Below, piece after piece: positions 3,541-40,203 of a DNA stretch of 64,000 nucleotides (position 1 is its first letter; each line of letters opens with the position of its first letter). Both the position numbers and the translations under genes were made by a program. The stretch lies in the IMG/VR virus record IMGVR_UViG_3300027754_003435. One strand, given 5' to 3'. A model generated the notes under the pieces. That model was not told the DNA's origin and ran no database searches. It saw only the letters and a program-made list of their open reading frames with translations. Source of the DNA: a virus.

Positions 3541-3572
3541 ATAACTACTCCAGTATATATAATAATAATATT

Positions 3573-4601
3573 CTATAAAGAAATTCCTCTTCTATAAGAT
3601 TGAATTGGAGGTTCTCCATAGAATACATGCTGTTCATCTTTATTAACTTCAAAGATACTCATTTTTTCCTCATTTTCCAAGTCTTTTTTTTCTATAACCG
3701 TATCTATATCAACTACTTCCGTTATTTCTTCAGTTGGAACAGTTTCTATTTTGGAAACGGTTATGGCATCTGTTATTTGGGATTCTACGTTTATCCGTTC
3801 TTTTTCTTTATGTCTTAAATGATTTGCAGCAATTATTAAAGAAACCGCCAATGGGTCAAACACAGAAACAAGAACAAGTATAAACCAATTTGCAATTACG
3901 TCCATTGGTTTTCCTGTTAATCTACTCAAATAAAGTAATGGACCAATTTCAGAACTAAATGTTGAATTTTCCAATACTAATTTATCTTGTTCTAATAAAG
4001 CAACCGAATCTGATAAATTAATTGATTTCTGATTTAATTGAGAAATTTCGCCATTGAGTGTTTGTGTGGATTGATCAACTGATTGAATATTTTTTTGTAA
4101 ACCGCGAGTTCCTTGCTTCTGAGTTAATTGGGAATTCAATGAGTTTTCTTGTGAAAGTCTCAGTCTATCGTATGAGGAAATACGTTCAGTTTTTTGTTTA
4201 ACCAATGTATCTATTTGTGTTTTTTGTTCCGTAAATATTTTTTTCTTTTGTTCAAGAAGAGCAATTTTATTTTGTGTTTCATAAATAGATTTTGCTGTTT
4301 CTTGATACGAGTTGGTAAGATAACCATATACACCAACAGAAGTTAATATCATTAGTACCGCTGCGGATGACATTAAATAAAACTTAAATAAAAGTTTAAG
4401 TGTTTTGAAGTGTTCATGTAAAAATGTTATAACAACTAACTTGGAAAATTCAAGCATTGTAGCCATTCCTATGATTGACCATGAACCACCAGAAAATAAT
4501 TTGGATATTCCGTATATAGAATAATATCCAGAAAAAGATGCTAAACCTATTGCACAAAACCAGATAAGTGTCTGTAATGACAATAATTTGGATTTCATCA
4601 A
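3573..4601 (-). CDS. Multi-pass membrane protein with long coiled coil
   Basis: Three N-terminal TM helices, a long heptad region and a C-terminal TM (WFILVLVSVFDPLAVSL). Confidence 0.75.
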   Translation of the reverse strand: MMKSKLLSLQTLIWFCAIGLASFSGYYSIYGISKLFSGGSWSIIGMATMLEFSKLVVITFLHEHFKTLKLLFKFYLMSSAAVLMILTSVGVYGYLTNSYQETAKSIYETQNKIALLEQKKKIFTEQKTQIDTLVKQKTERISSYDRLRLSQENSLNSQLTQKQGTRGLQKNIQSVDQSTQTLNGEISQLNQKSINLSDSVALLEQDKLVLENSTFSSEIGPLLYLSRLTGKPMDVIANWFILVLVSVFDPLAVSLIIAANHLRHKEKERINVESQITDAITVSKIETVPTEEITEVVDIDTVIEKKDLENEEKMSIFEVNKDEQHVFYGEPPIQSYRRGISL

Positions 4602-9545: not shown

Positions 9546-10007
9546 TTATTTTTTACCTTTATCCTTCTTTATTTTTATCAATTTTATATAAATACCACTA
9601 GTGTCTTCGGATATAATTACCGAGTGATTTCCTGTGTATAATACAAGTGTTAACCACTTTAAAAATTTATTTATATCTGTACTAATTGGATCACTTAAAT
9701 TTTTATCATTTTCATTTTGTGTTTTTTTTTCATCAAATGAATCATAACTATCTTCTTCCGACCAATCTTCACTAAAATCTTCATCTTCATTATCATTATC
9801 ATTATCAAATGGTGATGACTTTTCATCTTTTGTTTTTTGTTTTATTTTTTCTACAATATCCTGTAGAATTAAAGAATCATATATTTGATTAAATCTATCA
9901 ATAAATTTATTTTTTTCTTTGATTGATATTTTTTCATCAGTTACACTCTTTAAATCAATCTGAAAATAATTTAGCATAGATTTAAGTTTACGTTCTTGCT
10001 TTGTCAT
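9546..10007 (-). CDS. Hypothetical protein with acidic linker
   Basis: ORF track; part of a tightly packed operon. Confidence 0.6.
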   Translation of the reverse strand: MTKQERKLKSMLNYFQIDLKSVTDEKISIKEKNKFIDRFNQIYDSLILQDIVEKIKQKTKDEKSSPFDNDNDNEDEDFSEDWSEEDSYDSFDEKKTQNENDKNLSDPISTDINKFLKWLTLVLYTGNHSVIISEDTSGIYIKLIKIKKDKGKK

Positions 10008-10263
10008 TATTTTGCCTTTTTATAGTGTCAATAACTTCAACATATTCATAATTACCATGTTGTATTTGTACCATGGAATATCGTTTCAGTTCGTTACAAA
10101 TTTTTTCGTTTGATCCATAATTACTTGCAATATTAAGCATTGTGTTTTTTAATGGACAATTTTGTTTAAATATAGTAATTGGTGTTCTGGAAATAAACCA
10201 CATACTTATAAAACCGATAATGAATGAAGTAACTAATTCCATTTTCATCTCCAATTTATACAA
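9988..10263 (-). CDS. Small membrane-anchored hypothetical protein
   Basis: N-terminal hydrophobic segment; overlaps the downstream gene. Confidence 0.55.
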   Translation of the reverse strand: MYKLEMKMELVTSFIIGFISMWFISRTPITIFKQNCPLKNTMLNIASNYGSNEKICNELKRYSMVQIQHGNYEYVEVIDTIKRQNNDKART

Positions 10264-10291
10264 AATTTCCTTTTCAATAAATAGAATACAA

Positions 10292-10339
10292 ACAAAAAAA
10301 CGAGAGAAAAATGGTCGGTATATTTAATATCTCTCGTTT
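10292..10339 (-). terminator. Intrinsic terminator with an unusually large loop
   Basis: Stem AAACGAGAGA/TCTCTCGTTT, about 23-nt loop, then a T-run on the minus strand. Confidence 0.65.
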
Positions 10340-10354
10340 ATGTATAACTGAAGA

Positions 10355-10858
10355 TTATACTGAAATTCCTTTATTCTTTAATTCAGAACAAACTAATCTC
10401 GATACTTTCTTCCAATAGTGTTTGGTAGCCCCTTTTTTGTGTCCATGTGGACCACCGTTCCACTTTCTCGCTAATATCTCCATTTCGGTCATCGTAATGG
10501 TTTCCCAGTTAAGTTTGGGATTGTAGAAATTCTGATAAATCCAAAACATTTGTTCAGACTTATCAGGATTTAACCTGTCTTGTAAAGCAAATTGTTTATG
10601 TATTCCCTTTGCTTTACAGATACGATTCACTTCCTTTACCATTATTGGTAAAATTTGAACTATTCCAAGTGAACCATCCTTTGATCGTGCGGTTGCATTG
10701 CCCTTAGACTCAACCCAAACGATAGATGAATATAACACATTCTTAACTATTGCTGACTTAATCTCAGCGTTTTTGTTTACTACAGAAGTCATAGTTACTA
10801 TAGGTAAACAAAAAATAATAAAGAACGATGTTATAACCCGTTTACATTTGTTAGTCAT
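10355..10858 (-). CDS. Lytic transglycosylase / lysozyme-fold muralytic enzyme with N-terminal TM
   Basis: VESKG (catalytic Glu), GSLGIVQI, ARKWNGGP and YWKKV motifs; hydrophobic N-terminal anchor. Confidence 0.75.
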   Translation of the reverse strand: MTNKCKRVITSFFIIFCLPIVTMTSVVNKNAEIKSAIVKNVLYSSIVWVESKGNATARSKDGSLGIVQILPIMVKEVNRICKAKGIHKQFALQDRLNPDKSEQMFWIYQNFYNPKLNWETITMTEMEILARKWNGGPHGHKKGATKHYWKKVSRLVCSELKNKGISV

Positions 10859-11030
10859 AATTTATGTCCTCATTTATGGATAATATATTTAACTGACCAT
10901 TTCGTTGAAGTCAACGTTATGGTTAAAACATATACCGACCATATTTTTCTATGTAAAAGAACGATGTACAAATATAAGCAAAAAGATAAATATTAACAAA
11001 TCAAATTTTTCCTAATAATTTTATCTCTAG

Positions 11031-11818: not shown

Positions 11819-11922
11819 TTTTATAAGTATGATTCAAAAAAATAAAAATATTATTTGGAATAGATTGAACCATTTTGTATATTTGTACATGATTATTAAC
11901 AACAATTATTTAAGGATTATTT

Positions 11923-24934: not shown

Positions 24935-25307
24935 AGTGATGATTATTGTATAAGCCCGTTTATTTACAATAACTTAGCTTCCCCCACCTACCCCTATATC
25001 CCTATTATTATTTCATTTGGTTATTAAATTATCTTTCGTATTTTTGCTGTCAGATTAAACCTGATATAGTTACTATGAAAGATAAATTTATTATATGTAC
25101 CGATGAAATAAATGATTTGGTTAGTATCTAATAATTCCGTATATTTGTAGTATAAGAAATGGGGAAGGAGATAACGGGTATATATAGAAACCGATTGAAA
25201 CAATCGTTTGGAAGTTATCTCAAAATTTCTTATATTTGTATTATAAATGATTGGTTGATATTTGAACACAGTAGAATGGAAGTAGACAGTAAGTCTCGTT
25301 AGTATAC

Positions 25308-26251
25308 TATAGTATATACTATATAGAAGCAGTAAGTTCTGAAGAGTTCTATTTCATTTCCCAATTTAAACGAGGGTAACTATATAGTAGTTATATAGTA
25401 TCCATATAGTATATACTTAACGGTAATACCAAGGGTAAATAAATCAAGGGTAATTACTTAGGGCAACCCTAATGATGTACAGTTAGTATAGTATATACTA
25501 TATACCAATAGAGAATAATGTGCGATGAAGTTACGGTTATAATCCGTCTAGTAGTCAATATCATTATTCTCTTTTTTTATTTCAACTCTATGCATGCGTA
25601 CACTTTTGGATACCCTAACACCTCATACATGGAAAACTAGTAATATAAGGCGTGCTGTTCAATGAGACAAGTGCGGCTTCCCACATTACAAATATAACGT
25701 ATATACATCCCATAATGAAATTAAATAAATAATTTGTTTAAAATGATAAATAAATTATATCGGAATAACCAAAGGATTTATTTAATTAATAATTTTTATA
25801 TTACAAAAATGCATATTTCATTAGGAAATTACAATGCGCGTAAGCCGTTGAGCTATATAGAGTTACAGAGATGGCAAATGGAAATGAGCGGGCTCACTCA
25901 GATTCACCACATCTTCCCACTTCAACCCACACCACACTATATATTACCCACAGTATAGATATACATTAACTGGACATTAACTATACACATACTATGTAAT
26001 AATATTTTATTATATGGTAACATGAATGGAGTGAAATTGTACAATAATAGTTATAGGAGTATATTGTGGGTAACATTATCATCACTTATATAGTATATAA
26101 ACATTTGGAGTATTAGAATGGAATCATTATATTTGCATTGGGAACGTATAGTATTCCTTATACTTACTATTGTATTCTCTATAGTATTCAATATTAGTTA
26201 TAAGAAAGATTGTTTAAGTTGTATTGAAGTAGTAGTAATAGTATATACTAT
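25308..26251. repeat. Cluster of (TA)TAGTATATACTA(TA) palindromes
   Basis: 16-bp copies at 25308 and 25487, a 14-bp copy at 26238 and a 10-bp core at 25408. Confidence 0.9.
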
Positions 26252-39651: not shown

Positions 39652-39738
39652 GATATTTTTTCCTTATTGGTTGTTCTTAATTGGTTGTTCTTAATCTTAC
39701 ATTACAAATATACGGAATTATTCGTTAATATCCTAAAA

Positions 39739-40148: not shown

Positions 40149-40203
40149 TTTGGTATTTCAAATAAATTGATTATATTTGTAATGTAAGATTAAGAACAAC
40201 CAA
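40149..40203 (+). promoter_or_regulatory. Host-type early promoter plus conserved leader
   Basis: TTTG(40149)-19 nt-TATATTTG(40172), then TAATGTAAGATTAAGAACAACCAA. Confidence 0.85.

Follow-up and report, generated by a model that had tools for sequence, protein, structure and literature searches.

A conserved complementarity between the leader and the trailer of a lytic transglycosylase mRNA in freshwater phages

The SLT lytic transglycosylase mRNA of an uncultured freshwater phage of the Flavobacteria type carries in its leader a short sequence whose complement lies in its trailer, and the 11-bp duplex that the two can form is kept in 69 of 69 complete loci while the adjacent non-coding sequence has been replaced. 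The DNA analysed is a stretch of 64,000 nt (the window). The comparative data make it highly probable that RNA–RNA pairing between the 5′ and 3′ motifs has been selected. For its role, we propose a selected 5′–3′ panhandle, topologically a pseudoknot, that would control RNase access to the message or the formation of its ends, and we give this proposal as a whole a probability of about 0.5.

Transcription unit of the lytic transglycosylase gene

The SLT transglycosylase gene makes up a separate, self-contained transcription unit on the minus strand, with a predicted promoter, a leader of ~105 nt, an ORF and a terminator-like stem. Its features are given below in the order of the transcript; the leader hairpin is taken from the consensus fold, while the −7-type box, the Shine–Dalgarno-like element and the 5′ arm of the closing stem were read from the sequence.

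10997..11000, minus strand: TTTG, candidate −33-type element of a Bacteroidota-type promoter (TTTG, 20 nt, TATATTTG)
10994..10986, minus strand: AATATTTAT, candidate late-type box
10969..10976, minus strand: TATATTTG, candidate −7-type promoter box
10930..10942, minus strand: 5′ motif 'A' AUGGUCGGUAUAU, with the conserved core AUGGUCGGUAU at 10942..10932
10896..10923, minus strand: leader hairpin with an ACCAU/AUGGU base, a 2-nt internal loop, a 5-bp stem and a 4-nt loop
10876..10888, minus strand: box AUAUAUUAUCCAU ('A-prime-1'), imperfectly complementary to the 5′ motif and directly 5′ of the Shine–Dalgarno element
10867..10871, minus strand: Shine–Dalgarno-like GAGGA, kept in group 1
10355..10858, minus strand: CDS of 167 aa, N-terminal hydrophobic segment and SLT lytic transglycosylase domain (Pfam, PHROG)
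10330..10339, minus strand: 5′ arm of the closing stem, AAACGAGAGA
10311..10323, minus strand: 3′ motif 'A-prime-2' AUAUACCGACCAU in the hairpin loop, with the conserved core AUACCGACCAU at 10321..10311
10294..10307, minus strand: 3′ arm of the closing stem, UCUCUCGUUU (10307..10298), and U-tract (10300..10294), terminator-like
10277..10284, minus strand: CTATTTAT box past the terminator, conserved among relatives and probably the promoter box for the next gene
10241 (start), minus strand: next gene, small membrane protein MELV..., syntenic in relatives (MEL..F..GF..W)

The TTTG element and TATATTTG fit TTTG-N19-21-TAnnTTTG, which we take to be the Bacteroidota-type promoter consensus. The transcript is predicted to start at ~10960–10965, which would put the 5′ motif ~20 nt into the leader. 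A 13-mer at 10976..10964 of the minus strand, TATATTTGTACAT, is found again at 11878..11890 of the plus strand, ahead of divergent genes. Sigma-70 and terminator consensus scans were uninformative at this locus, and CTATTTAT, counted as an 8-mer, is not enriched in the window. The 167-aa ORF matched PF01464 in Pfam (E 4.5e-6) and endolysin in PHROG (E 3e-6), and its product is probably an exported muralytic or lysis enzyme. A reading frame that opens with the AUG in the 5′ motif was rejected as coding because it is broken by indels in the relatives L006, L016 and L064. The late-type box, TATTTAT(A/T), also occurs 3′ of the terminator; among the relatives described below, it lies ~45 nt upstream of the 5′ motif in group 1 and adjoins the motif in group 2.

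The complementary pair in the window

An earlier note on this DNA, made from the sequence alone, had reported that the leader string AGAAAAATATGGTCGGTATAT is complementary to the trailer string ATATACCGACCATTTTTCT, and both are found on the minus strand, at 10950..10930 and 10323..10305, respectively. Between them lies the 13-bp perfect core that the note described (10942..10930 with 10323..10311), beyond which an extension needs a 2-nt bulge. Its figure of 19 bp for the duplex stands only in part: the 11-bp element (AUGGUCGGUAU/AUACCGACCAU) is robust, whereas the A/U-tract extension, which across lineages is better than flank-shuffled controls by only ~2.6 kcal/mol, is not. The trailer string does sit inside the loop of a terminator-like hairpin, as the note also had it, with a loop of 22 nt closed by AAACGAGAGA and UCUCUCGUUU and followed by a U-run. 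Depending on the lineage, the duplex is extended to 16–23 bp with bulges: in group 1, the A/U tract lies on the 5′ side of the motif, and in group 2, UGUUG/CAACA lies on its 3′ side.

Within the 64-kb window, the 13-mer is present at just these two sites. In simulated sequence with the same dinucleotide make-up as the AT-rich window, ~4.4 perfect 13-nt inverted pairs, 30–1000 nt apart, are expected by chance per 64 kb; the pair is therefore not significant from the window alone, and the argument for it is comparative.

Conservation among relatives

Protein-guided scans yielded 42 viral loci, 80 metagenome loci and one MAG contig, the last labelled Flavobacteriaceae and from Lake Baikal. The conservation set comprised the 69 loci in which the gene is complete and both flanks are present, which gave 54 unique transcripts after duplicate removal, drawn from many lakes and rivers. 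The earlier note had proposed conservation in related phages as a check on the pair, and the pair is kept in all 69 loci, at protein identities down to ~50%: GGTCGGTAT is present upstream and its complement downstream in every one, and GGUCGGUAU of the 5′ motif is invariant throughout. Two clades, group 1, to which the window belongs, and group 2 (~55–60% aa identity), keep the pair despite different non-coding architecture, and so do the singletons L017, L090, L095 and L097. Protein identity is 73–98% for most group-1 relatives. In group 2, L095 and L097 (~50–60% aa identity), the pair persists where the other non-coding bases have all changed and synonymous sites are saturated. Among the 54 unique transcripts, in-register pairing was found in 92.6% of cells, compared with 27–42% when the 3′ partner was slid by 1–3 columns, and none of 500 shuffles of the whole-transcript alignment matched the observed pairing or covariation score.

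The motif is missing from more remote genes. The distant SLT relatives L022–L042 (31–46% aa identity), whose genes sit within operons, have neither the motif nor an excess of 5′/3′ complementarity, with duplex z scores of ~0, and the out-group of L099 and L102–L109 (50–54% aa identity) has an ordinary compact terminator without the motif. The element is thus clade-specific. No DNA similar to the window was found among the INPHARED phage records, and a search of Rfam 15 gave just two chance-level matches (E 1.6 and 7.7), far under the gathering scores.

A conserved third copy of the motif was searched for among the relatives and none was found. Extra 7-mer matches in L019, L024 and L042 lie in coding sequence and were put down to chance. 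As a possible target in trans, we considered a 17-nt match in a 137-kb relative, antisense in a large ORF, and rejected it because it is a coding stretch (Y-T-D-H-I) with free synonymous drift in 80 relatives of that ORF.

Evidence for pairing at the RNA level

Variation within the duplex is one-sided. The nine core positions of the 5′ copy show zero variation, and the core variants, nine unique sequences, are all in the 3′ copy and all preserve pairing as G.U on the sense RNA. The change from ACCGACC to ACCGGCC is seen in lineages of both clades, where the gene tree gives it two or more origins, probably five or six, and the change to ACUGACC occurred once, in L097. The independence of the wobble events is possibly overcounted if trailers recombine. 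On the sense strand, seven of nine transitions in the 3′ copy preserve pairing compared with two of nine in the 5′ copy, so that the one-sided variation fits pairing of the sense RNA; it is the opposite of what an antisense RNA would predict, and a double-stranded DNA site would predict no asymmetry. Two-sided changes are found at four pairs of the duplex: edge pair −2 is A-U or U-A (37:14), swapped between the clades, edge pair −1 goes from U-A to C-G in L095, and edge pair +10 appears as A-U, A.C or G-C. In group 2, the conserved 11-bp helix takes the form UUGG.../...CCAA. The retained wobble and compensatory changes bear out the view of the earlier note that the complementarity acts between the leader and the trailer of one mRNA.

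The 9-nt core is frozen on both arms, bar the G.U-preserving variants of the 3′ copy, while every neighbouring helix has been replaced. This hints at a further sequence-specific constraint, by a protein or nuclease, beyond plain pairing. It may be enough that selection acts strongly on every pair of a short long-range helix that evolves via G.U intermediates; a sequence-specific reader, whether nuclease or protein, is equally possible.

Two accounts would deprive the pairing of its meaning for the RNA. That the repeat arose by chance and was conserved merely through close kinship is hardly credible: the expectation of ~4.4 such 13-mer pairs in the window and the high identity of most group-1 relatives would allow it, but the pair outlives all other non-coding bases in group 2, L095 and L097, synonymous sites of the coding 17-nt look-alike drift freely across a comparable span, and the differing flanks argue against the divergent loci being recent recombinants that share the same UTR cassette. 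A DNA-level inverted repeat, be it one recognised by an invertase (an on/off inverton), bound by a regulator that loops the DNA or bordering a mobile cassette, is very improbable. Sequence invariant on both arms would be expected of a protein-recognised site, and invertons of Bacteroidota resemble the present arrangement in their inverted orientation and 600–650 bp spacing. However, the inverted arrangement was found in none of the 69 loci and in no DNA or RNA contig, including the DNA contig of run X13 (rare variants could hide in contigs), and there are no strand-switch joints across loci and contigs. Homology with relatives runs unbroken through both repeats, upstream to the promoter box and downstream to the syntenic small membrane-protein gene, with no target-site duplications at the repeats. 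Moreover, the core variants are confined to one arm and keep G.U pairing on the sense RNA, and the 3′ arm always lies within a covarying RNA stem-loop. The alternative raised in the earlier note, inverted ends of a mobilised cassette, is contradicted by the same orientation in 69 of 69 loci, the continuous homology and the one-sided variants.

Structures flanking the two motifs

RNAalifold on the full set of leaders or trailers returned an empty structure because the two clades differ in architecture, and consensus folds were therefore made for each clade. The leader hairpin of the earlier note, ACCAU-AA-CGUUG-ACUU-CAACG-AA-AUGGU, is present at 10923..10896. In 35 group-1 sequences, 7 of its 10 pairs vary, 5 of them with two-sided compensatory changes; in group 2, its position is taken by another hairpin, which also covaries. 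The note had also suggested that ACCAU of this hairpin could pair alternatively with an upstream AUGGU. This pairing is not conserved: it is absent in group 2, and L067 shifts the hairpin base compensatorily while its 5′ motif stays unchanged.

The closing stem around the 3′ motif measures 8 bp in each of the 18 group-1 trailers that have a short loop. Its group-2 counterpart is 13 bp long and unrelated in sequence, and five of its pairs show compensatory changes. The 3′ motif is enclosed by a stem in 53 of 54 trailers, and it has a probability of being unpaired of ~0.95 when group-1 trailers are folded alone. A U-tract follows the closing stem in the window, L001 and the group-2 types, and is absent in most group-1 relatives; the stem itself is absent in L017 and L095, where the 3′ motif abuts a U-tract. 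The terminator consensus scan does not call the closing stem because its loop is 22 nt long. UUAUCCA of the A-prime-1 box is kept in both clades, and TTATCCAWAA is not enriched in the window (45 matches, one of them exact, against 35 expected). In addition, a degenerate version of the 5′ motif, GUUGUAUA, is present in the group-2 trailer and is able to mask the 3′ motif locally.

Folding of the transcript and the ribosome-binding site

The minimum free energy structure of the full transcript includes the duplex in the window, L008, L017 and L095, with pair probabilities of 0.64–1.0. The probability is 0.45 in L001, 0.2–0.8 in L002 and ~0 in L019, L076, L097 and group 2, all with nested folding. 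The values near zero arise because the duplex crosses the closing stem and such a pseudoknot is beyond nested algorithms; in group 2 and L097, a strong closing stem and the local mask GUUGUAUA compete with the duplex. We assumed that duplex and closing stem coexist as a pseudoknot. The duplex has a ΔG of about −19 to −28 kcal/mol, and blocking it costs 1.7–16 kcal/mol in the window, L002, L008, L017 and L095. In consensus folds of leader-plus-trailer mini-transcripts, the long-range helix is chosen in both clades. When the leader is folded alone, the 5′ motif has a median probability of being unpaired of 0.25, and its partner is mostly the A-prime-1 box.

The Shine–Dalgarno element (10871..10867) is ~60 nt from the duplex (10942..10932) and takes no part in it. 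The energy of opening the ribosome-binding site (RBS, −18..+6) differed by at most 1.1 kcal/mol between duplex forced and duplex blocked, with no consistent direction, in the nested model of eight diverse relatives. The earlier note had likened the mRNA to hok-type toxin messages silenced by fold-back. The unchanged predicted opening of the RBS gives no support to such inhibition; the product is an enzyme of 167 aa rather than a small toxin, and consensus promoter scans found no antisense partner.

Ends of RNA contigs

RNA contigs from two riverine metatranscriptome studies end at 10330 or ~10326, where they carry Illumina adapter, while DNA contigs extend further. At contig level, these ends fall 0–5 nt past the 5′ arm of the stem and just ahead of the 3′ motif; in run X18, the letters flanked by adapter put the RNA end directly against the 3′ motif, if the strain has an L043-type loop. 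The ends would fit a cut next to the duplex, or a stable duplex that blocks priming, and we regard them as a weak hint. If they are real, the mature mRNA would be without the 3′ motif, which fits processing rather than protection. Runs X16–X20 (word share 0.30–0.34) and X21–X24 (near 0) were not counted toward habitat or expression. In run X5, the stretch 10869–11024 is uncovered.

Proposed mechanism and alternatives

We propose that the SLT mRNA closes on itself by pairing of the 11-nt leader sequence AUGGUCGGUAU with its complement in the trailer. The complement would be presented single-stranded in the large loop of the terminator-like hairpin, ~30 nt past the stop codon, and the panhandle, by crossing the closing stem, would be topologically a pseudoknot. 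The duplex would join the 5′ and 3′ untranslated regions and control the action of ribonucleases on the message, without direct masking of the RBS, either by protecting the leader and the 3′ end from cleavage or by defining a processing site. In this way, it would set how long the mRNA of an exported and potentially lethal wall-degrading enzyme persists, or how much of it there is. We hold this RNase or end-protection function tentatively, at somewhat under even odds, and favour a panhandle that acts on RNase access or end definition because the hbs 5′/3′-UTR duplex discussed below is its closest mechanistic precedent.

It is rather unlikely that the duplex is itself part of 3′- or 5′-end formation, as a processing stalk of the rRNA kind or as a split intrinsic terminator. 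As a stalk, it might let a double-strand-specific nuclease cut the lysis-enzyme message, with defined ends, from longer phage transcripts. As a split terminator, it would have its upstream arm ~600 nt away in the leader, and the transcript would measure its own completeness. In either form, the invariant 9-nt core would be a recognition element and not merely a pairing surface.

Two further explanations accept the pairing and give it another role. An unlikely one is a hok-like three-element translational switch, in which the nascent 5′ motif would pair with AUAUAUUAUCCAU near the Shine–Dalgarno element and the 3′ complement would later capture the 5′ motif; 3′ processing may undo the capture, so that ribosome access changes and synthesis of the wall-degrading enzyme is delayed or gated. 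The layout parallels that of hok tac, ucb and fbi (PMC9841398), and translation of T4 lysozyme is likewise timed by leader structure (PMC3014915). The leader folded alone does pair the 5′ motif mostly with the box just upstream of the Shine–Dalgarno element, UUAUCCA of that box is kept in both clades though its flanks differ, and there is a possible 3′ end right before the 3′ motif. Against such a switch stand the small shift in RBS opening in the eight relatives, to which the comparison of nascent with full-length RNA adds no consistent sign, and the quality of the local pairing, which includes G.U pairs as well as mismatches, is lost in L055 and is weaker in variants with CCAAUAA. Furthermore, L097 is without UUAUCCA, and in some relatives the same box lies ahead of the Shine–Dalgarno element of the next gene and may have an unrelated role.

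More doubtful still is a split or long-range intrinsic terminator, or termination modulator, with the 5′ motif as its upstream arm and the 3′ motif with a U-tract as its downstream arm, whereby termination past the gene would depend on the availability of the leader sequence. L017 and L095, which are without the closing stem, have AUUUUUU or GUUUUUAUUUUU directly after the 3′ motif and no other terminator ahead of the next promoter box. Most group-1 relatives have U5 right after the motif in place of a U-tract after the closing stem, and group 1 has an A-tract 5′ of the 5′ motif. Yarnell and Roberts reportedly found in 1999 that release in vitro can be triggered by oligonucleotides annealed directly 5′ of a U-tract. 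On the other hand, trailers of the L001 type have ACCAUACCUC with no U-run after the motif, and group 2 has AAAUUUAUU together with its own canonical 13-bp stem and U-tract. The RNA contigs end before the motif, not past the U-tract, and we know of no precedent in cis for a helix that forms over ~600 nt within the narrow kinetic window of termination.

Relation to known systems

Functional end-to-end pairing of mRNA in bacteria and phages is known from a handful of cases (hok, icaR and hbs). The SLT element shares the end-to-end principle with all three and lacks the testable defining features of hok and icaR. In hok, translational silencing requires a pairing state that decides access to the Shine–Dalgarno element (PMC9841398). 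As in the SLT mRNA, an element at the 5′ end of hok pairs with one in the 3′ UTR, the ribosome site has a partly complementary third box close by, and the encoded product endangers the envelope (PMC9841398); the 3′ processing of hok may have a counterpart in the SLT mRNA. However, the hok product is a pore peptide of ~50 aa rather than an enzyme of 167 aa, and hok has the overlapping frame mok and an antisense RNA, whereas the SLT unit has no such frame and, by consensus scans, no antisense partner. The 3′ partner is a free 3′ end in hok and lies inside a hairpin loop in the SLT mRNA. The two mRNAs have no sequence relation, and the predicted RBS accessibility of the SLT mRNA is independent of the duplex.

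In icaR of Staphylococcus aureus, the 3′ UTR pairs with its own 5′ UTR to form a duplex that is a substrate of RNase III and lowers expression (PMC3868564); it pairs with the Shine–Dalgarno element itself, unlike the SLT duplex, which is ~60 nt away from it. The hbs mRNA of B. subtilis has a 14-bp 5′/3′-UTR duplex that limits cleavage by RNase Y in the leader (Braun, Durand and Condon 2017, PMC5737220). Like the SLT mRNA, it is a small monocistronic message with a structured leader and a short leader/3′-UTR duplex (14 bp compared with 11–13 bp), and the SLT duplex shares the hbs-type features of being short and conserved, running from leader to 3′ UTR and sparing the RBS. Since the hbs duplex acts on RNase access rather than on the RBS, it is the closest match to the proposed SLT mechanism. 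It differs in belonging to a cellular gene of another phylum with another RNase set, and the hbs pairing is reported not to be conserved among close relatives (review PMC7821165), whereas the SLT element is conserved across its clade and joins a loop to the leader as a pseudoknot. The rRNA processing stalks are cleaved by RNase III after long-distance pairing of the flanks, which releases the RNA with defined ends (PMC6582327). There is a likeness in that the limits of the SLT RNA contigs fall inside the two motifs, but the stalks are much longer helices than the SLT one (11 bp robust, up to ~19 bp with bulges), whose length is marginal for classical RNase III; such cleavage of the SLT mRNA is hypothetical.

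The SLT element differs from hok, icaR and hbs in the position of the 3′ partner in a terminator-type loop, the clade-wide conservation and the muralytic gene that the two motifs flank. Mistimed expression of such a gene should kill the host early, and post-transcriptional control is almost unexplored in Bacteroidota phages. Natural variation in dozens of uncultured phages here supplies comparative evidence, with an invariant 5′ arm, a 3′ arm that varies by wobble only and replaced flanks. The leader-to-loop pseudoknot, together with the two lineages in which the motif abuts a U-tract, leads to testable predictions on how termination and RNA decay are coupled to the timing of lysis. Being compact, the 11-nt pair might also serve as a trial module for mRNA stability or end definition in Flavobacteria.

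In phage T4, a local hairpin in the mRNA of gene e (lysozyme) sequesters the Shine–Dalgarno element and AUG, and late transcripts start inside the hairpin (PMC3014915). Both are mRNAs of a muralytic enzyme with a conserved structure thought to prevent mistimed expression (PMC3014915), and in both, the 5′ end may differ according to whether a host-type or a late-type promoter box is used. The T4 structure is local at the RBS, whereas the SLT pairing is end-to-end and spares it. If the late-type box of group 2 sets the start site there, the RNA may begin inside the 5′ motif.

Possible control elements in the leader and trailer

In trailers of group 2, the clade at about 55–60% protein identity, the terminator hairpin holds a sequence, AAUGUUGUAUA (e.g. 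L019:3525-3560), that resembles the 5′ motif in degenerate form and can pair locally with the 3′ motif. The A-to-G wobble variant of the 3′ motif fits both partners, this local copy and the leader, which suggests that the local mask competes with the leader for the 3′ motif in group 2.

Several further features were located in the window, as follows:

9988-10241 (−), gene for an 84-aa protein (MELVTSFIIGFISMWF...), downstream of the lytic transglycosylase (SLT) gene
10326-10331 (− strand mRNA), RNA contig ends joined to Illumina adapter
10874-10883 (−), UUAUCCAYAA box (in the relative L002, about 3565-3585)
10964-10976 (−) and 11878-11890 (+), identical copies of the 13-mer TATATTTGTACAT in opposite orientations
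25305-26243, palindromic repeats of the TATAGTATATACTATA type
about 39667-39712 and 40172-40203, perfect inverted repeat TTGGTTGTTCTTAATCTTACATTACAAATATA...

The RNA contig ends, found in runs X16 and X18 from two metatranscriptome studies, lie between the closing stem's 5′ arm, which they directly follow, and the 3′ motif. They may mark an RNA 3′ end produced by processing, or they may reflect a block to priming caused by the duplex.

The UUAUCCAYAA box lies 1–3 nt upstream of the Shine–Dalgarno sequence and is kept in both group 1, which includes the window, and group 2. Some relatives carry a further copy ahead of the Shine–Dalgarno sequence of the downstream gene, and no genome-wide enrichment of the box was found. 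A translational regulator might bind there.

All 18 group-2-type leaders (L076-L097; L019:2967-3005 as example) carry a conserved AUG within AAAGAAUG(A/C)AAA, 48–53 nt downstream of the 5′ motif. This AUG opens an upstream ORF of 10–13 codons, whose stop lies 0–5 nt from the main start or overlaps it (AUGA); in L080 and L095 the upstream ORF is in frame with the main ORF, giving a longer protein. The frame of the encoded peptide differs among lineages, and therefore the act of translating the upstream ORF, or the N-terminal extension, may be important rather than the peptide.

Downstream membrane-protein gene

The gene for the 84-aa membrane protein was syntenic with the SLT gene in 9 of the 11 relatives sampled, across both clades. 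It often starts with UUG or GUG, preceded by GGAG. The protein matched no family, and could act as a holin- or spanin-like partner. In the singleton L095 (about 2055-2115), a 9-bp inverted repeat, CCAAGACAC ... GUGUCUUGG, encloses the Shine–Dalgarno sequence and UUG start of this gene and extends across the CTATTTAT box. The lysis-type cassette may thus contain another structured element of control besides the first.

Repeated sequences in the window

The 13-mer TATATTTGTACAT comprises a predicted host-type −7 box and start region. One copy would serve the SLT gene and the other the divergent + strand genes past the NAGPA-like gene, so that it looks like a promoter module used more than once.

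The palindromic repeats are clustered in a large ORF-poor region. The arms of the inverted repeat TTGGTTGTTCTTAATCTTACATTACAAATATA... (about 34–46 nt) are separated by about 500 nt, and its first 13 nt are duplicated in tandem. Its length far exceeds chance expectation, and the arms may represent a promoter cassette present in two copies, convergent or divergent.
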